This document shows positions 6,903 to 48,416 of a DNA stretch of 64,000 nucleotides, in pieces. The stretch comes from a phage: the sequence record PX104380.1. One strand, written 5' to 3'. The position numbers and the translations under genes were made by a program. How positions within the stretch are numbered: position 1 is the stretch's first letter; each line of letters starts with the position of its first letter. Under the pieces are notes generated by a model. The model had not been told where the DNA came from. It did not search any database and saw only the letters and a list, made by a program, of their open reading frames with translations.

Positions 6903-7877
6903 TCACTTCCACTGCATTTCGCATGCTAATTGAATGAAAAGATAAGCTAGATGCAATTCAGTATTAGCTGCAATACCATGATACTGATTATTTTCGCCGA
7001 CAATTTCGTACATACGAATAATACTCTGTGGTGTTACACGTGAATAGATTTCTTCGGCAAGTTTACCAACAAACCAAGAATAATCTGCTGCATATTTTGG
7101 TGCTAAAGCTCTGAGTTGTTTAACATCTTTATTTTTGAGAGACTCAAGAACATCATCAATAGCACCACGATCGTTAGTAACCAGTGATAAAATACCAGCA
7201 TCCAAAACACCTTTAGATGAATAACTATCGAGCTCGCCAATAGTTTTACGAAAATCAGGAAAATTCTTTTTAACCAAAGCTGCTACAACTTTCATATCAG
7301 CTATAGCAATACCTTCATGTTTACAGATTTCAGTCAACCGACGAATCATCTGCTTCATCATTTCAATTTTATCTTCATCGGTCGGTTGACCGAATGTGAT
7401 AACTCGACAGCGTGACTGAAGCGGTTTAATAATACCATCAATATTGTTAGCAGTAATAATAATACTACAGTTCGAACTATAAGCTTCCATAAAGGAACGA
7501 AGATGTCGCTGAGACTCTGCTAATCCTGAGCGGTCAAATTCATCAATAACAATTACCTTTTGACGACCATCAAATGAAGCGGCGCTGGCAAAATTAGTCA
7601 AAGGACCACGAACGAAATCAATTTTACAATCTGATCCATTCACAAACATCATATCAGCATTTACATCATGGCACAATGCTTTTGCTACAGTTGTTTTACC
7701 TGTTCCTGGAGAAGGAGAATGAAGAATAATATGTGGAATCTTACCTTTACTTGTAATAGATTTAAAGGTTTCTTTATCAAAGGCGGGAAGAATACATTCA
7801 TCGATAGTAGATGGACGATATTTCTGTTCAAGAATGTGTTCTTTTTCATTTACGGTAATCATAATTTCCTCATTCAA
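6903..7877 (-). CDS. 44: clamp loader ATPase (RFC-like)
   Basis: AAA+ motifs GTGKTT and VIDEFD; likely true start at internal Met (7862) giving 319 aa as in T4. Confidence 0.9.
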
Positions 7878-7896
7878 GTTTTAGTGTAAATTATAA

Positions 7897-7910
7897 AGGG
7901 CCGAAGCCCT
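7897..7910 (-). other. UUCG-tetraloop RNA hairpin between genes 45 and 44
   Basis: Plus agggccgaagccct. Confidence 0.5.
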
Positions 7911-7913
7911 CTA

Positions 7914-8600
7914 TTAAAAATCGTGGGTAGAATCAGCTTCAAGAGCTACTACATAATTCGCGTGTTCACCTTCAAATTTAGCAGCACCTTGTTTACCTTT
8001 TGCCCAGAGCAGAAGTTTATAATTTCCTGGTTGCATTTTCATATTTGCCATATTGATAATGAAATTAAATGTATTTTCACCATCATAATCACCAAGAGTC
8101 AAAGAATATTTAACACGTGTCAGAGCAGAATCTTCTACTTTATTAAAACCGTTAATTACGATTTTACCTTCTTTTACCGTGATAGCAATTGTATCAATTT
8201 GCAGACCACGAGATACACGCAACAGTTGTTGAAGGTCTTCAGCTTTAATTTCAGTAACAACAGATGCTACCGGGAATGGAATTGGTTTATTAGGAGCAAC
8301 TACTGTACTCGGATCGGCTGCTGGCCAAAAAATTGTTGAACGGGCATCAGCAATTTTAATATTTCCATCTTCTGACTGGGAAATTTCTGCATCATCATTA
8401 ACTAGAGACAGAATACCGAGAAAACCGTTCAAATCGTAAATTGCTACATCAAAATCAATAGTGTCAGAAATATTTGCTTCCGCATAAGTTGTACCATTAA
8501 CTGCGCGAGTCATAATAAATTGACCGGATTTAAGCATAATACCGGAGTTAATAGTAGCGAAATTTTTCAAAATATTCAGTGTGTCTTTAGATAATTTCAT
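7914..8600 (-). CDS. 45: sliding clamp
   Basis: 228 aa, same length as T4 gp45; synteny. Confidence 0.9.
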   Translation of the reverse strand: MKLSKDTLNILKNFATINSGIMLKSGQFIMTRAVNGTTYAEANISDTIDFDVAIYDLNGFLGILSLVNDDAEISQSEDGNIKIADARSTIFWPAADPSTVVAPNKPIPFPVASVVTEIKAEDLQQLLRVSRGLQIDTIAITVKEGKIVINGFNKVEDSALTRVKYSLTLGDYDGENTFNFIINMANMKMQPGNYKLLLWAKGKQGAAKFEGEHANYVVALEADSTHDF

Positions 8601-29620: not shown

Positions 29621-30340
29621 TTAGGATTCTTCTAAATGTCTTTTCTGAAAAGTTGATACCATACTACGATACGGTTCATTTGGATACCCGTGTTTTATAG
29701 CTTCCTTTGTAAATTTTCTCCATCCATATTTAGTTTCTTTCCAAAGCTCGAATAATTCATCTTCATACTGCCATATAGTTAAATGAGAACGCTTTGCAGC
29801 TTTAATTCCATTAATATGCTTTTCTTTTACTACAGGATTGCTTAGTTTCTTTTTAATAATATTACTAACTTTTCTAACAAAAACTGGGTCCTTATATCGT
29901 TGCGAAGTTTTTATTGAAGTGTTTAATTTAGCTTCCGGTGTGGATGTGACCTCTTTCATCTTTTTCTTCATATGCTGTATATGATTAGGATTTTTCCATA
30001 AATTTATAGAATGCTTTTTGCATTTTATCCTAGTTTCATCTGCAACCTTTCCTCCTTCACCTCCGTATGACAGGTTAACACAGTTTTTTCCATATTTCAA
30101 TTTACCTGCCATGATATATAATATTTCAGCTTGTACCATTTTATCATAATTATCAAAAACTTCTAAAACCGTTTTTGATAATATGTGGTCATTTGACACT
30201 TTTACACGTTCTATATAATTTCCACTACCAACATACGAATCATTGATGTTATTAGTTATATGTCGACCATAATAGTATTTCTTAATACCTGTCTTTAAAT
30301 TTAATATTTCAGTTTTATAGATAGTAAAATATTTTTTCAT
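29621..30340 (-). CDS. free-standing GIY-YIG-like homing endonuclease
   Basis: 239 aa; FTIYKTEILNLKTGIKKYYYGRH then NINDSYVGSG, the same motif as the 19197-20027 protein. Confidence 0.6.
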   Translation of the reverse strand: MKKYFTIYKTEILNLKTGIKKYYYGRHITNNINDSYVGSGNYIERVKVSNDHILSKTVLEVFDNYDKMVQAEILYIMAGKLKYGKNCVNLSYGGEGGKVADETRIKCKKHSINLWKNPNHIQHMKKKMKEVTSTPEAKLNTSIKTSQRYKDPVFVRKVSNIIKKKLSNPVVKEKHINGIKAAKRSHLTIWQYEDELFELWKETKYGWRKFTKEAIKHGYPNEPYRSMVSTFQKRHLEES

Positions 30341-31473
30341 TTTAATAATACCGTTTCAGCAATTTCTTCCCAATGATTTTTGTCGGTCATAATAAAGTCA
30401 GCAAGATAAAGAGCAGTACGCAGTGAAACATTGCGTAAACGATTAACATTGACTTTCATCCATGATAATGCTTTATAAGTTTCTTCATCAGAAAGACCGC
30501 GCTTTTGCATCATGTCAGTTGAAAGAATAACATCTTCAACCCTGACCATAATTTCTTCATTAGTGTGAACACCCAAATCCAAATAAACTGAGCGGGACAC
30601 TAATGCTTGTAAATGTGGAGCAAGTTTAGTACCACGGTCTAATTCGCGGTCAATGTCAACGTTTGTGATAAAAACAATCGTTCCTTTAAATTCAAACTCA
30701 CGCTCAATGCCTTTTTCTTCTAAGTAAGAAGATGCGGTGCTCCAGCAGACTTTACGGGTCTCTCCAGTGTCCAGAGCAGCTTTCAGAAGATTAAGAATGT
30801 CCATATCAGAGAAAACATCCACATCATCAATCAAAAGGACAGAATTCTCTTCACGATTATTCCAAAGCTGTTCATAAAGACCGATACCAGAGATTTTACC
30901 ATTAATGCTTTTATACTCAATGTATCCAATATCATTTGCTTTATTTAAAGCTTTATCTAAAGAATACGTTTTACCAATACCCGCCGCGCCAGAGATAATT
31001 AATGAACGAATGTTTCCGTTAATAATACCATTCGTCATCATTCCCATAACATTAAATCTTTTATTAATGCGGGTTTTCATATCTTCATACGATTCTTTAA
31101 CTTCTTCAACTTTTACACCATCATATGAAATGTCTGATTTGTAAACCCAAACACCGCGACGTTTACCGTCAATTTCAACAAAAACTTTACCATCTCCTTG
31201 TGCATCTACTGGAGCATTATCAGGGAACCACTCACCTAAGAGTTCAAAGGTTCCAGAGATTTCTTTGCCAAAGTAAATACCCTTATTGATAGTTACAGTT
31301 TTCATTTTATTCTCCAAATCTGTATCAGTTGATAGTTGTATAGTACCATAAAGCTTTATGCTTGTAAACAACTTTGTGAAAAATTTTTGAAATAAAAAAA
31401 GGGAGCCCGAAGGCTCCCTATCATTTATAATAACTTCGATGGTTTTCAAGATAGACCTTCTCAAGGAAGTCAT
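30337..31473 (-). CDS. AAA-type P-loop ATPase (nrdC.10-like)
   Basis: Walker A GAAGIGKT, Walker B LLIDDVD; track N-terminus runs through the promoter; ATG at 31303-31305 with GGAG leader gives about 322 aa. Confidence 0.7.
   Translation of the reverse strand: MTSLRRSILKTIEVIINDREPSGSLFLFQKFFTKLFTSIKLYGTIQLSTDTDLENKMKTVTINKGIYFGKEISGTFELLGEWFPDNAPVDAQGDGKVFVEIDGKRRGVWVYKSDISYDGVKVEEVKESYEDMKTRINKRFNVMGMMTNGIINGNIRSLIISGAAGIGKTYSLDKALNKANDIGYIEYKSINGKISGIGLYEQLWNNREENSVLLIDDVDVFSDMDILNLLKAALDTGETRKVCWSTASSYLEEKGIEREFEFKGTIVFITNVDIDRELDRGTKLAPHLQALVSRSVYLDLGVHTNEEIMVRVEDVILSTDMMQKRGLSDEETYKALSWMKVNVNRLRNVSLRTALYLADFIMTDKNHWEEIAETVLLK
31340..31369 (-). promoter_or_regulatory. T4-type early promoter with conserved leader
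   Basis: Plus atagta at 31340-31345 and tgtaaac at 31363-31369. Confidence 0.55.
31401..31418 (-). terminator. stem-loop between the nucleotidyltransferase-like gene and the promoter
   Basis: Plus gggagcccgaaggctccc, flanked by A-run on plus (U-run on minus). Confidence 0.5.
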
Positions 31474-32434
31474 CCCAGAAACTCATATCTACCTTATCAG
31501 GCATACCGTTCTTAGAAGCTTCAGTAGATGCTGCTTCTACTTGATCAACCACATCTTCCAAAAACTCTTGAACTGTTTTAAATGGATGTTTACCCAGCTT
31601 CACGTCGAGAATAAATGGAGCATCTTGAAGTGGATAAATTAAGTCGCCAGTTTTGTAAATTTCCAATAGTTGGAGTCCACCACGACAAGCATGACTCAAA
31701 GCTTTCCAGTCAATGCCTTCATTGGCTTCGGCTTTACGAGCACGTTCACCGTATTCAGCATCTAATTTGTTCAGTGACTGCTTAAGCTCAATAAGAGAAA
31801 GCGTTGTCTGATATTTACGACCCAACACAGTGTAGAACGTTTGTGGGCCTGTTTTCTCATGATTATGGAACACCCATTCACAGAATTCGTTTTCTGGAAG
31901 ACGATGCTTAATATCTTCAATTTTAGTGCGACGTTGTCCTTGTGTTCCATCTTCTCGGTAGACATTCCGTTGATCAGGAATTTGATTAATTACTTTCAAC
32001 ACATCACGTAATGCAGCTAGACGAGAACCTTTAACACCATATTTAGAAGCTTGCTTGCGAACATATCCTAAATAGGATTTCATGTTAGTCGTATAAAAAC
32101 GAGAACGGTTGTCTTGAATAAACTTCCACACATCAGGCAAATCAGATTTAACCACTAGTTCAGGTGGAGTGTGTAGCATATCCAATGCTACAGTTTCACC
32201 ATCTGCTGCTAATTTAAAGAAATATTTAAGACTGTATAGTTCATGGTCAATATCATCTTTAGTGTTTTTAGATGATGTGTTGTTAGTGTTTTTACTCATG
32301 TGCTCTTTGACATTTCCGATAAGAATATCGCGAGCAGGAGGAACAAAGATTTCTTTAAAATCTACATCAGATTCTGGAGTAGAAATTCCATAAAGATGAC
32401 TACCAAAATAGCTTTTCATTACTGTTTTCATCAT
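31421..32434 (-). CDS. Pol-beta-superfamily nucleotidyltransferase-like protein (nrdC.11-like)
   Basis: 337 aa; N-terminal FGSHLYGISTPESDVDF fits the GS-x(9-13)-DxD nucleotidyltransferase signature. Confidence 0.55.
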   Translation of the reverse strand: MMKTVMKSYFGSHLYGISTPESDVDFKEIFVPPARDILIGNVKEHMSKNTNNTSSKNTKDDIDHELYSLKYFFKLAADGETVALDMLHTPPELVVKSDLPDVWKFIQDNRSRFYTTNMKSYLGYVRKQASKYGVKGSRLAALRDVLKVINQIPDQRNVYREDGTQGQRRTKIEDIKHRLPENEFCEWVFHNHEKTGPQTFYTVLGRKYQTTLSLIELKQSLNKLDAEYGERARKAEANEGIDWKALSHACRGGLQLLEIYKTGDLIYPLQDAPFILDVKLGKHPFKTVQEFLEDVVDQVEAASTEASKNGMPDKVDMSFWDDFLEKVYLENHRSYYK

Positions 32435-32892
32435 TCAGCCTTATATTCAATAACAGGACATACTTTAGCTTTACGAGCTTTTAAAAATTCAACGATAATC
32501 GATTTCTTGGGTTGAATAGGAGGTAAACCTTTATTTTTCCTATCAATGTTTTCTACGTGTAAAGCATAATCCTTTTTCCATTTATAATCTTTATATTTTT
32601 CACGCAAATGTACAGGAATAACAAATGAACCAATAATAAGTAAAACAACCAAAAGCGCAAGTATAAATGCTGATGGAAGCAAAGTCCATAAACTACCAAA
32701 AATAAGCCAGCGCTGTAAACTTTCTGCACAAATAATTGTCAGCCCTACGAGTATAGCACACCCAAAAATAGAAACGAAAAATGTAGGGATAACAATAGAC
32801 CAAAAGTATGCACATAGCGTCTTAGGTCGTTGCCATTCATCGTTAAACAATTTGAATAATTTATAGTGCCAAGAGTTTTCATTAATAATCAT
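32431..32892 (-). CDS. hypothetical integral membrane protein
   Basis: 153 aa with three predicted transmembrane helices. Confidence 0.5.
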   Translation of the reverse strand: MIINENSWHYKLFKLFNDEWQRPKTLCAYFWSIVIPTFFVSIFGCAILVGLTIICAESLQRWLIFGSLWTLLPSAFILALLVVLLIIGSFVIPVHLREKYKDYKWKKDYALHVENIDRKNKGLPPIQPKKSIIVEFLKARKAKVCPVIEYKAE

Positions 32893-32894
32893 AA

Positions 32895-33416
32895 TTATCC
32901 TTTCATTGAAGGCGTAACGGTTGTTAAATACTTAATCATAGCTTCAGCTTCTGATTTTGATAATGAAATTTCTCCATTGTTTTGACGAATAGAAATAAAA
33001 TCCGGATGACGGTCACCACCAGCTTTTAAAACGCACATATAAGTATCAACTTCGCCTTCAATATTTGAAATGATTGAAGCAGTTCCACATGAATGCGGTT
33101 TTTGATAAATCAATGCAGCTTTTCTTCCGCCATTTGACTGTTCATAAACTTTTAATACATCAAACAAATCACTTCTTTTATCAATAGCTAAAATGTTATT
33201 TTCATCTTCAATGTTAAATCCTTCGGATACTTCATAAAGTGTCACCCATAAATCGCCAATATCAATAACAGCGTTCACTTTTCCATGACTTTCAAGAGCA
33301 TGACAAATTTTCTTGATTTCGTCATAACCCATTTTAATAATATCATCTCCTTGAATAAGAAAGATGTCATTTTTAAATTCAACACGAATTAAACCACTTC
33401 CACTTGAAATAAACAT
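32895..33416 (-). CDS. hypothetical protein (tandem paralog A)
   Basis: 173 aa; C-terminus EAEAMIKYLTTVTPSM resembles the next gene. Confidence 0.5.
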   Translation of the reverse strand: MFISSGSGLIRVEFKNDIFLIQGDDIIKMGYDEIKKICHALESHGKVNAVIDIGDLWVTLYEVSEGFNIEDENNILAIDKRSDLFDVLKVYEQSNGGRKAALIYQKPHSCGTASIISNIEGEVDTYMCVLKAGGDRHPDFISIRQNNGEISLSKSEAEAMIKYLTTVTPSMKG

Positions 33417-33422
33417 ATTTCC

Positions 33423-33977
33423 TCACTTTGAAATCATAGTTGGAATGACAGAATCAAGATAATTCTTTAGCGCAATAGCTTCGTCTTTGGTAAATGTGAC
33501 AATATGTGCTCGAGAATCATCATTTTGGCGAACAAGTACGACATCGCCATCTTCATAAGAAGTCTTGACATCCAAAGTCGTAGTATAGTTTGCAGCTACT
33601 GGATTAATAATGCTAGCACCGCGATCTTTAGCCCATTGAAGTTTAACCTTTTCGGGTGTTTCGACTGTTTCAGATTCCAAGAATTCTTTCACCTTGGTAA
33701 CGAATGTTGCCCAATTGTTGATAGAAAGACACATAAATTCAGTTTCAATATTACCGCCGTAAAGGCCACGATAAAAACGAACTTGGAGGTCGCCTGTAAT
33801 ATTAGTTACACCGGTAACTCCTGAGGGAGCATAAGATAAAATCGCAGCCAGTTCCATAGGGAGAATAGTAATACTATCGTCTTCCTGCGTCAGAACGTAT
33901 ACATTATCACGTTTTTCGATAACCAGGTCACCGAACAAATCAGTTGTTTCAATTACAGCTTTCATATTATTTACCAA
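33423..33977 (-). CDS. hypothetical protein (tandem paralog B)
   Basis: 184 aa; C-terminus DEAIALKNYLDSVIPTM. Confidence 0.5.
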   Translation of the reverse strand: MVNNMKAVIETTDLFGDLVIEKRDNVYVLTQEDDSITILPMELAAILSYAPSGVTGVTNITGDLQVRFYRGLYGGNIETEFMCLSINNWATFVTKVKEFLESETVETPEKVKLQWAKDRGASIINPVAANYTTTLDVKTSYEDGDVVLVRQNDDSRAHIVTFTKDEAIALKNYLDSVIPTMISK

Positions 33978-34284: not shown

Positions 34285-34314
34285 ACTATACCATAACCTT
34301 GCCAACTTGTAAAC
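34285..34314 (-). promoter_or_regulatory. T4-type early promoter
   Basis: Plus tgtaaac at 34308-34314, actata at 34285-34290 (-10 TATAGT), 17-nt spacer. Confidence 0.45.
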
Positions 34315-47398: not shown

Positions 47399-47474
47399 TG
47401 GTCGAGGCAGTAGGGATCGAACCTACGACCTAGGACTTAGAAGGTCCTTGCTCTTCCTTCTGAGCTATGCCCCG
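47399..47474 (-). tRNA. tRNA-Arg (anticodon UCU)
   Basis: 76 nt cloverleaf by hand folding; acceptor CGGGGCA/UGCCUCG, anticodon loop CUUCUAA, T-loop UUCGAUC, CCA encoded. Confidence 0.85.
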
Positions 47475-47478
47475 TAAT

Positions 47479-47554
47479 TGGGGTGACCGATGGGAGTCGA
47501 ACCCATGACTACGAGAATCACAATCTCGAGTTCTACCAACTGAACTACGGCCAC
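47479..47554 (-). tRNA. tRNA-His (anticodon GUG)
   Basis: 76 nt; anticodon stem CGAGA/UCUCG, loop UUGUGAU, discriminator C73, CCA encoded; no encoded G-1. Confidence 0.8.
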
Positions 47555-47668
47555 ATTAATACCTACTCCAACAATCAAGATGTCTTCACACGAAATTAAG
47601 AGAAGAGTGATCAGTTCAACCCCTATAATCGCGTCAAGTAGATATTAATGTGACAGTTGTCACAAATT

Positions 47669-47743
47669 TGGCGGACGTGATAGGATTCGAACCTATAACC
47701 AATCGCTTAACAGGCGATCGCTCTGCCATTGAGCTACACATCC
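47669..47743 (-). tRNA. tRNA-Asn (anticodon GUU)
   Basis: 75 nt; anticodon stem AUCGC/GCGAU, loop CUGUUAA, T-loop UUCGAAU, CCA encoded. Confidence 0.8.
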
Positions 47744-47747
47744 AAAT

Positions 47748-47834
47748 TGGTGGGGAGTGGTGGAGTCGAACCACCCGAGTCGCAATGACAATGAATTTAC
47801 AGTCCACACCGCTACCTCTACGGGATAACTCCCC
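47748..47834 (-). tRNA. tRNA-Tyr (anticodon GUA), class II
   Basis: 87 nt with long variable arm; anticodon loop CUGUAAA; acceptor GGGGAGU/ACUCCCC; CCA encoded. Confidence 0.75.
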
Positions 47835-47843
47835 AAATTAATT

Positions 47844-47918
47844 TGGTGGCCCTGGGTGGAATTGAACCACCATCTGGCGATTATGAGTCGCTTGCTTGAA
47901 CCTTCCAGCTACAGGGCC
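47844..47918 (-). tRNA. tRNA with CAU anticodon (Ile2 by position, or Met)
   Basis: 75 nt; anticodon loop CUCAUAA; acceptor GGCCCUG/CAGGGCC; CCA encoded. Confidence 0.75.
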
Positions 47919-47919
47919 T

Positions 47920-47995
47920 TGGTGCTGATTAACGGAATCGAACCGCCGACCTTCTCATTACAAGTGAGTTGCTCTACCTACTGAGCTAAATCAGC
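47920..47995 (-). tRNA. tRNA-Thr (anticodon UGU)
   Basis: 76 nt; anticodon loop CUUGUAA; T-loop UUCGAUU; CCA encoded. Confidence 0.8.
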
Positions 47996-48000
47996 AAAAC

Positions 48001-48090
48001 TGGCGGAGGTGATAGGATTCGAACCTATGAATCGCCGGAGCGACTGCCGGTTTTCAAGACCGGTGCATTCAACCACTCTGCCACACCTCC
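48001..48090 (-). tRNA. tRNA-Ser (anticodon UGA), class II
   Basis: 90 nt; anticodon stem CCGGU/ACCGG, loop CUUGAAA; long variable arm; CCA encoded. Confidence 0.8.
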
Positions 48091-48092
48091 AG

Positions 48093-48166
48093 TCTCCATA
48101 CAAGGATTTGAACCTTGGACCTCCTGATCCCAAATCAGGCGCTCTACCAAACTGAGCTACACGGAG
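48093..48166 (-). tRNA. tRNA-Pro (anticodon UGG)
   Basis: Anticodon stem CCUGA/UCAGG, loop UUUGGGA; C1-G72; 3' CCA not encoded. Confidence 0.8.
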
Positions 48167-48176
48167 TAAATTAAAT

Positions 48177-48250
<74 letters not shown>

Positions 48251-48255
48251 AAATT

Positions 48256-48342
48256 TGGTGCGAGAAGTGGGACTCGAACCCACAAGGAAATCATTCCGCA
48301 GCATTTTAAGTGCTGTGCCTTTACCAATTTGACCATTCTCGC
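48256..48342 (-). tRNA. tRNA-Leu (anticodon UAA), class II
   Basis: 87 nt; anticodon stem CAGCA/UGCUG, loop CUUAAAA; long variable arm; CCA encoded. Confidence 0.8.
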
Positions 48343-48343
48343 G

Positions 48344-48416
48344 CTGGGAATAAAGGACTCGAACCTTTGCATCCTGGAATCAAAATCCAGTGCCTTACCA
48401 ACTTGGCTAATTCCCA
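48344..48416 (-). tRNA. tRNA-Gln (anticodon UUG)
   Basis: 73 nt; U1-A72; anticodon stem CUGGA/UCCAG, loop UUUUGAU; CCA not encoded; 1 nt from tRNA-Leu. Confidence 0.8.

Follow-up and report, generated by a model that had tools for sequence, protein, structure and literature searches.

The present study analyzes two neighbouring genes, nrdC.11 and nrdC.10, in a window of 64,000 nucleotides (the whole stretch of DNA that was analysed) from a T4-like phage (Tequatrovirus; sequence record PX104380.1). The explanation that we favour as a whole, and consider probable, is that these are two independent accessory genes, NrdC.11 being an RlaP-family nucleotidyltransferase (NTase) that would refill RNA 3′ ends and NrdC.10 a separate AAA+ ATPase. 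A first-pass annotation, made from the letters of the sequence, had recognised two genes at 30337-32434, the upstream one as a Pol-beta-superfamily nucleotidyltransferase and the downstream one as a Walker A/B AAA-type ATPase; both genes are found there, on the minus strand, and both identifications hold. They are the long-catalogued T4 genes nrdC.11 and nrdC.10, and the family assignment of the NTase and the functional hypothesis for it are already published. As early as 2006, Nolan et al. (PMC1524935) assigned nrdC.11 to the COG3541 nucleotidyltransferases and nrdC.10 to the AAA ATPases, and found the latter in three of six T4-like phages. What is added here is, first, a corrected start for the ATPase gene and a conserved terminator/promoter boundary between the two genes, with nrdC.10 shown not to form one unit with nrdC.11, and secondly, a tandem of long and canonical RlaP genes in bacterial repair operons and the coupling of a CCA enzyme gene to the NTase gene in two phages.

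NrdC.11 as a long member of the RlaP family

The N-terminus of NrdC.11, MMKTVMKSYFGSHLYGISTPESDVDFKEIF, contains G11-S12, ten further residues (H13-S22) and D23-V24-D25, which is the signature of GS, ten residues and DVD noticed at first pass, and the match of this region to the Pfam family PF10127 (RlaP) shows that the motif is not there by chance. That match covers residues 7-135 and profile positions 23-142 of 249 and scores 45.9 bits (E 7.7e-12), where the cut-off is 23; all the homologues listed carry a PF10127 entry as well. When 1.84 billion cluster representatives were searched, full-length relatives at E < 1e-30 were found in 819 families. In an alignment of 50 homologues with 34-54% identity, G11, S12, G16, S22, D23, D25, N57, D63, Y132, R231, K244, H248, R251 and P268 are invariant, and the same residues, the catalytic aspartates among them, are invariant in a second alignment of 66 homologues with 38-95% identity. 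Profile comparison by hhalign with canonical bacterial RlaPs aligned residues 7-133 (probability 93%, E 3.5e-7) and paired D63 with D82, the invariant third aspartate of the canonical enzymes. NrdC.11 is thus very probably a member of the RlaP family. Searches of NCBIfam gave no match for NrdC.11 or NrdC.10, and a sequence search of PDB chains with both proteins and the NTase family profile gave no meaningful match. Translation of NrdC.11 may begin at the second ATG, the start given for the gene in the related phage RB51.

The AlphaFold2 model of NrdC.11 (predicted local distance difference test, pLDDT, 87.8) begins with an alpha/beta NTase domain, which is followed by a beta-rich insertion and, at the C-terminus, by a helical bundle. 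Fold searches with this model return nucleotidyltransferases, consistent with a Pol-beta-type fold; the best structural match is HalB (PDB 9dbh), with kanamycin nucleotidyltransferase (KNTase) and structure 3c18 scoring nearly as well, and no cGAS or CD-NTase structure is among the top matches. Neither of the outcomes that would have counted against the first-pass reading of this gene, catalytic aspartates lost in homologues or a fold other than that of an NTase, was observed. The structures matched in these searches did not include the crystal structure of PfRlaP, a Pseudomonas RlaP. The beta insertion, which is the gappiest and most variable stretch of the family alignment, has no equivalent in the Pfam RlaP match or in canonical RlaPs, the matches ending at about residue 135. 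For the C-terminal halves, hhalign comparison of sub-alignments from long and canonical RlaPs gave the expected K..[YH]..R helix as the best local match, K244-x3-H248-x2-R251 of NrdC.11 being paired with K160-x3-Y164-x2-R167 of the canonical form, but the match was not significant (E 0.094). Because the N-terminal alignment is significant and that of the C-terminal halves is not, NrdC.11 is placed by its sequence in a divergent, longer (“long”) branch of the RlaP family, and with the alignment to canonical RlaP confined to the N-terminal 130 residues, its substrate specificity could differ from that of the Pseudomonas enzymes.

The name RlaP was given by Burroughs and Aravind, as some of the genes share operons with RNA ligases (PMC12776372, PMC7824862), and the family was predicted to replace nucleotides lost from cleaved RNA before ligation, such as the wobble base excised by RloC (PMC7824862, PMC12776372). 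A preprint of December 2025 (Carruthers, Fatma and Huang) reports that the Pseudomonas enzymes PfRlaP and PaRlaP add one or two nucleoside monophosphates (NMPs) or deoxynucleoside monophosphates to an RNA 3′-OH, with a preference for Mn2+ and no activity on DNA or proteins (PMC12776372). Given both ends of a cleaved-tRNA mimic, they favour the 5′ half over the acceptor 3′ end; they partly rescue aminoacylation of tRNA missing one anticodon-loop nucleotide, and in total E. coli RNA they label full-length tRNA, rRNA-sized species and tRNA halves (PMC12776372). The same work placed “T4NrdC.11” in the RlaP family, in cluster 5 of a sequence similarity network (PMC12776372). The first-pass statement that neither gene has an assigned role is therefore overtaken for the NTase by this published family assignment (PMC12776372), and it stands for the ATPase, whose family phrog_1250 is labelled “unknown function.” From the Pseudomonas RlaPs, family membership and the gene neighbourhoods of orthologues, an RNA-extending activity with damaged tRNA as the target is most likely for NrdC.11.

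Gene neighbourhoods and a possible role in RNA repair

The strongest evidence from context comes from the RNA-repair gene neighbourhoods of bacterial orthologues. The bacterial set comprised 80 loci (L093-L172) with full-length NrdC.11 relatives of 31-53% identity, many of them on short contigs, and in 31 of the 80 an RNA-repair gene or a canonical RlaP gene was within 6 kb. Canonical RlaP was found at about 24 loci, RtcB at 10, Hen1 at five, a Pnkp-ligase (kinase-phosphatase-ligase) at three to four and Ro60/TROVE at two to four. Where canonical RlaP occurred (about 24/80), the gene for the long form was followed directly, on the same strand, by one for a protein of 250-270 amino acids that matches PF10127 over its full length (E 3.9e-75), often with RtcB, Hen1 or Pnkp in the vicinity, and this tandem suggests that the two NTases share the work between them or form a heteromer. 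The window and the phage loci examined contained no canonical RlaP, T4-like phages having the long form only.

Phage neighbourhoods are more varied. In the window, the NTase gene is accompanied by genes for a membrane protein, y05I-type proteins, NrdC.10 and a homing endonuclease, and the neighbours differ widely across 34 divergent phage loci, where NAMPT/Nudix NAD salvage, Band_7, HD and DNA methylase genes occur, and PolyA_pol only twice. Because of this heterogeneity the phage context is weak by itself and the bacterial loci are more informative. Some phage loci do contain RNA-processing genes near the NTase: on a 141-kb contig (L011) an RNA ligase gene is about 3.4 kb upstream, with RNase T and NADAR genes also upstream, on another phage contig (L087) RtcB is 3.3 kb away, and in Bacillus phage KLEB27-3 a distant NrdC.11 homologue is found among genes for RNA ligase, polynucleotide kinase (Pnk) and a metallophosphoesterase.

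A role for NrdC.11 may be proposed in the following steps. A host nuclease would cut or trim tRNA, or other RNA, during infection, and the phage Pnk (pseT) would remove the 2′,3′-cyclic phosphate or 3′-phosphate to give 3′-OH and 5′-phosphate ends. The two-metal site of NrdC.11 (G-S/D23-x-D25/D63) would add one or two NMPs, untemplated, to the RNA 3′-OH in place of the nucleotides removed, and a T4-type Rnl1, a 5′-phosphate RNA ligase, would seal the break, or the mended 3′ end would pass to CCA maturation. Classical T4 Pnk/Rnl1 repair would thereby be extended to nucleases that excise nucleotides, e.g. those of the RloC type. The 3′-OH product of RlaP suits a 5′-phosphate ligase such as Rnl1 better than RtcB, a mismatch with RtcB that the preprint itself raises (PMC12776372). 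T4 is viable in the laboratory with nrdC.11-mobD.3 deleted (PMC9825161), as would be expected of a counter-defence gene. We consider that NrdC.11 probably extends RNA 3′ ends in repair, and that a role directed specifically at RloC is doubtful. Likewise unlikely in our estimate is a broader scheme for the long RlaP clade, seen as structurally distinct by its beta insertion and divergent helical bundle, in which the bacterial members would act in tandem with canonical RlaP in RtcB or Pnkp/Hen1 operons, and those of T4-like phages would act alone, as a third enzyme with Pnk and Rnl1, to re-insert the nucleotides excised by RloC and so beat a supposedly repair-proof defence.

Several observations weigh against the favoured explanation. 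No RNA ligase or kinase gene adjoins nrdC.11 in the window or in T4-like phages generally; RB51 does encode pseT (Pnk), rnlA (Rnl1) and stp, with pseT and rnlA about 80 kb from nrdC.11. The commonest NTase neighbours in divergent phages are NAMPT, Nudix, Band_7 and HD genes and not RNA repair genes, and about 49 of the 80 bacterial loci showed no recognised repair neighbour, many of them being on short contigs and some probably representing phage DNA that was binned into metagenome-assembled genomes. The best structural match, HalB, makes DNA and not RNA, and the literature searched contained no experiments on NrdC.11 itself. As for the ATPase, a link of NrdC.10 to DNA metabolism is weak, coming from a few neighbourhoods in syntenic phages and from generic AAA+ similarity.

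An alternative explanation could be that NrdC.11 acts on RNA 3′ ends in another way, either mending or extending the 3′-CCA of tRNA together with a CCA enzyme, or tailing host or phage RNAs and so altering their stability. In two distant phages, Vibrio phage 1.084.O and Alishewanella phage Slicko01, a CCA-adding-type gene (PolyA_pol head domain) is positioned directly upstream and overlaps the NTase start, such that the two genes appear to be translationally coupled, and this link to a CCA enzyme makes a role at tRNA 3′ ends possible instead. The labelling of full-length tRNA and rRNA-sized species by RlaPs, and not of tRNA halves alone, is consistent with this, as is an RNase T-family gene near the NTase on two contigs (L011 and L014). 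However, bacterial orthologues sit with ligase-based systems (RtcB, Pnkp/Hen1) that handle internal breaks, the Pseudomonas RlaPs choose the 5′ half of cleaved tRNA over the acceptor 3′ end, and T4-like phages of this type are not known to encode a CCA enzyme. We regard CCA mending or tailing as quite unlikely, and refilling of RNA 3′ ends in repair as the preferred role.

The boundary between the genes and the NrdC.10 ATPase

The genes nrdC.11 and nrdC.10 do not overlap, 115 nucleotides lying between them, and this spacer contains a hairpin resembling an intrinsic terminator, a promoter-like site and a GGAG ahead of the nrdC.10 start (Table 1). The terminator stem is preserved by compensatory changes in phages with only 76-81% protein identity, and in five phages GTTTACA is invariant and TG-N-TAnnAT is kept; GGAG-ATG is conserved as well, and the remainder of the spacer has 1-nucleotide and 7-nucleotide indels in relatives. 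An early-type promoter of its own for nrdC.10, as proposed at first pass, is thus supported as a sequence feature. The first-pass start of the ATPase at 31473 is corrected here to 31305, since phrog_1250 aligns with residues 57-378 of the longer open reading frame and with none of residues 1-56, RB51 annotates nrdC.10 from the ATG equivalent to 31305, and the stretch of the long frame that encodes residues 1-56 is broken by indels in relatives. The frame of 378 amino acids (31473..30337) was rejected as over-extended, its residues 1-56 spanning the terminator and promoter. An over-long form of 377/378 amino acids is also produced by automated gene callers (cluster P0121, 246 member sequences).

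Adjacency of the two genes was counted in 78 IMG/VR viral loci centred on the NTase, with a radius of 8 kb. The ATPase was present in 37, always downstream and on the same strand, with spacers of 112-2290 nucleotides, and was not present in the other 41, among which are loci at 80% NTase identity and almost every locus below 52%. In four Aeromonas-type T4-like genomes both genes are present 39-111 kb apart, and the ATPase occurs without a nearby NTase in jumbo phage 121Q, Roseobacter phage RDJL6 (Xiamenvirus) and Aeromonas phage phiA8-29 (Ackermannviridae). For VR26, RB43 and Slopekvirus no ATPase was detected within 8 kb of the NTase or in a pattern-based IMG/VR scan, which was not a genome-wide check. 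Counts of phage records for NTase and ATPase were 1562 and 1313 overall, 286 and 149 for Klebsiella, and 59 and 121 for Vibrio. With a terminator-like hairpin and a promoter-like site between the genes, variable spacing, and an ATPase that in some genomes is far away or alone, the pair is not a module: nrdC.11 and nrdC.10 appear to be separate transcription units and independent accessory genes, and their adjacency is local synteny. The gene pair implied by the first-pass annotation does not, then, survive the wider comparison.

It could still be argued that the two proteins work together as a functional module, in which for example the ATPase remodels or delivers the substrate of the NTase, given that order and strand are constant wherever the genes are within 8 kb and that both genes are widespread in T4-like phages. 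The shared gene order follows from the synteny of the phages concerned, which are related Tevenvirinae and Acinetobacter T4-like phages. Besides the boundary and the separated or solitary ATPase genes already described, the partners of NrdC.11 orthologues in bacteria are RlaP, RtcB, Pnkp and Hen1, with no NrdC.10-type ATPase in the conserved neighbour clusters. A module is in our view very unlikely, and two independent genes remain the better account.

NrdC.10 is an AAA+ ATPase of an uncurated phage family. It matches phrog_1250 (1.1e-165), and G106, G109, G111 and K112 of Walker A and D160 and D161 of Walker B are invariant in 54 homologues with 54-88% identity. The AlphaFold2 model (pLDDT 90.2) comprises an N-terminal beta domain, an AAA+ core and a lid, and Foldseek returned 187 PDB matches at E ≤ 1e-3, the top 50 listed being all AAA+ proteins. 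Matches include ORC/Cdc6, Hda, RFC, RuvB, NSF and sigma-54 activators (E 3e-6 to 1e-4). With ORC/Cdc6, Hda, RFC and RuvB the protein shares Walker A/B motifs and an alpha/beta core with helical lid, at a Foldseek probability of 1.0. It differs from initiator and clamp-loader ATPases in that template modelling scores are about 0.4, identity is 11-16% and no Pfam AAA family is above threshold; AAA_14, AAA_22 and AAA_16 were all below the gathering score in NrdC.10 and the 54 homologues, 50 of which had sub-threshold generic AAA matches. It differs further in its N-terminal beta domain, which is unique to it and which jumbo-phage homologues lack. Clamp-loader PHROG families matched NrdC.10 weakly (E 1.6e-4), and PADLOC models gave no match for it. 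Away from the NTase, the gene is found beside topoisomerase II gp52 in KVP40-like contigs, near UvsW at three loci and inside the RDJL6 replication module, and these neighbourhoods together with the fold point weakly to a function in DNA metabolism. A more specific function was considered and set aside, the fold matches being generic to AAA+ proteins and the neighbours inconsistent beyond a few replication genes.

Genome setting and comparison with known systems

The stretch containing the two genes has 97% nucleotide identity to RB51 and RB68, with identical gene order, and the proteins have 95% (NrdC.11) and 98.8% (NrdC.10) identity to those of T4. RB51 annotation gives nrdC.11 as a nucleotidyltransferase (alias tk.-11) and nrdC.10 as a hypothetical protein. 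Many homologues of both genes in GenBank and UniRef are labelled “thioredoxin,” and one is labelled “HNH homing endonuclease”; these are annotation errors, the former apparently inherited from the gene symbol nrdC. Every gene in the area is on the minus strand, and the window as a whole has a G+C content of about 35%, with negative GC skew across its first 52 kb. Two y05I paralogues are positioned upstream of the NTase operon, with a strong promoter-like site at 34313..34285. Downstream, the start codon of a homing endonuclease gene overlaps the nrdC.10 stop (ATGA); T4 has no seg-like endonuclease at this position and has mobD upstream of nrdC.11 instead. The range of spacers between nrdC.11 and nrdC.10 among relatives (112 to 2290 nucleotides) marks this neighbourhood as a hot spot for insertions. 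The window also carries, at 47399-48416 on the minus strand, a tRNA gene cluster with 11 members (Arg, His, Asn, Tyr, Met/Ile-CAU, Thr, Ser, Pro, Gly, Leu and Gln). The cluster has no tRNA-Lys, its His and Pro genes are unannotated in the closest relative RB51, and the RB51 cluster is interrupted by a homing endonuclease gene.

Table 1. Features of the nrdC.11/nrdC.10 area and loci from other contigs. Positions are those of the window unless a locus number (L) is given.
Feature	Position	Strand	Remarks
y05I/mobD.1-type genes (two, tandem paralogues)	33977..33423 and 33416..32895	-	T4_y05I N- and C-terminal domains PF24449/PF24448, “putative transcription factor”
Small membrane protein gene	32892..32431	-	
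nrdC.11, nucleotidyltransferase, 337 amino acids	32434..31421	-	RlaP-family (PF10127), Pol-beta-type
NTase catalytic domain, residues 7-135	32030..32416	-	PF10127 and hhalign match
NrdC.11 catalytic G11-S12	32404..32399	-	
NrdC.11 catalytic D23-x-D25	32368..32360	-	
NrdC.11 third carboxylate D63	32248..32246	-	
NrdC.11 beta-rich insertion, residues ~150-210	31805..31987	-	AlphaFold2 strands 155-159, 165-169, 185-192, 196-203, 206-209
NrdC.11 C-terminal helical bundle, residues 214-336	31427..31795	-	invariant R231, K244, H248, R251; motif DWKAxSHAxR
Intrinsic-terminator-like hairpin, GGGAGCC-UUCG-GGCUCCC + T-run	31393..31419	-	immediately after nrdC.11 stop
Sigma-70/T4-early-type promoter-like site of nrdC.10	31340..31368	-	(G)TTTACA, 17 nucleotides, TACTAT, TG upstream; 9/12 matches
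GGAG	31315..31312	-	precedes nrdC.10 ATG at 31305
nrdC.10, AAA+ ATPase, 322 amino acids	31305..30337	-	orphan AAA+ ATPase
NrdC.10 N-terminal beta domain, residues 1-62	31305..31120	-	
NrdC.10 Walker A GAAGIGKT, residues 106-113	30990..30967	-	
NrdC.10 Walker B LLIDDVD, residues 157-163	30837..30817	-	
seg-like GIY-YIG homing endonuclease gene	30340..29621	-	phrog_314; then nrdC.9-like genes downstream
PolyA_pol / NrdC.11 homologue	L005:5610-6947 / 6926-7924; L006:5652-6905 / 6905-7888		
Long + canonical RlaP tandem (example)	L158:6001-6945 then L158:6976-7767		
NrdC.10 loci away from T4-type phages	L220:7039-8322, L218:4595-5920, L225:8455-9912, L003		gp52, UvsW (~1.4 kb) or RDJL6 module

Among known systems, NrdC.11 is like canonical RlaP in having the N-terminal set of G-S, D-x-D and a third Asp followed by a helical C-terminal domain, and in that its orthologues occur beside RtcB, Pnkp and Hen1. 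It is unlike canonical RlaP in being about 80 residues longer, in its beta insertion of about 60 residues and in a C-terminal half without significant alignment. Bacterial genes for long RlaP are usually positioned directly upstream of a canonical short RlaP gene, which T4-like phages lack, and phage nrdC.11 is not adjacent to a ligase gene.

The Hailong enzyme HalB (PDB 9dbh), a protein of 217 amino acids, synthesizes oligodeoxyadenylate (oligo-dA) independently of a template, primes on its own tyrosine and works with the HalA channel. An alternative in this direction is that NrdC.11 is a new anti-defence enzyme making a signalling or decoy (oligo)nucleotide, either in the manner of CD-NTases or as a HalB-like producer of oligo-dA that keeps a Hailong-type channel closed; signalling nucleotides and CD-NTase-type enzymes had been among the options of the first-pass annotation. 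The similarity to HalB is limited to the common NTase core, at 17% identity, with near-equal scores for KNTase and 3c18, and NrdC.11 has no HalA-like partner and belongs to another sequence family, RlaP, with other gene contexts, the neighbours of its orthologues being RNA-repair genes. In addition, RlaPs did not extend DNA, no PADLOC defence model matched NrdC.11 at E up to 0.01, CBASS cyclases included, and no CD-NTase family of Pfam matched, such that we consider a signalling or decoy product highly improbable. NrdC.11 also shares with kanamycin NTase/ANT(4′) and the JCSG structure 3c18 an N-terminal Pol-beta NTase domain and a C-terminal helical bundle, and its fold resembles kanamycin/ANT(4′) and lincosamide NTases and its bundle HEPN-type domains, yet nucleotidylation of a small molecule or protein, as by an aminoglycoside NTase or an MNT/HEPN-type AMPylating enzyme, is equally improbable.

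The closest functional parallel to RNA refilling by NrdC.11 is within T4 itself, the phage that led to the discovery of RNA repair. The T4 Pnk/Rnl1 pathway counters the PrrC anticodon nuclease, and the job proposed for NrdC.11 is of the same kind, the mending of host-cut tRNA, in a group of phages where RB51 has pseT, rnlA and stp. The putative refilling step is, by contrast, missing from the classical two-enzyme route. If the proposed role is true, a working NrdC.11 would add nucleotide refilling to textbook T4 RNA repair and would counter excising nucleases of the RloC type.

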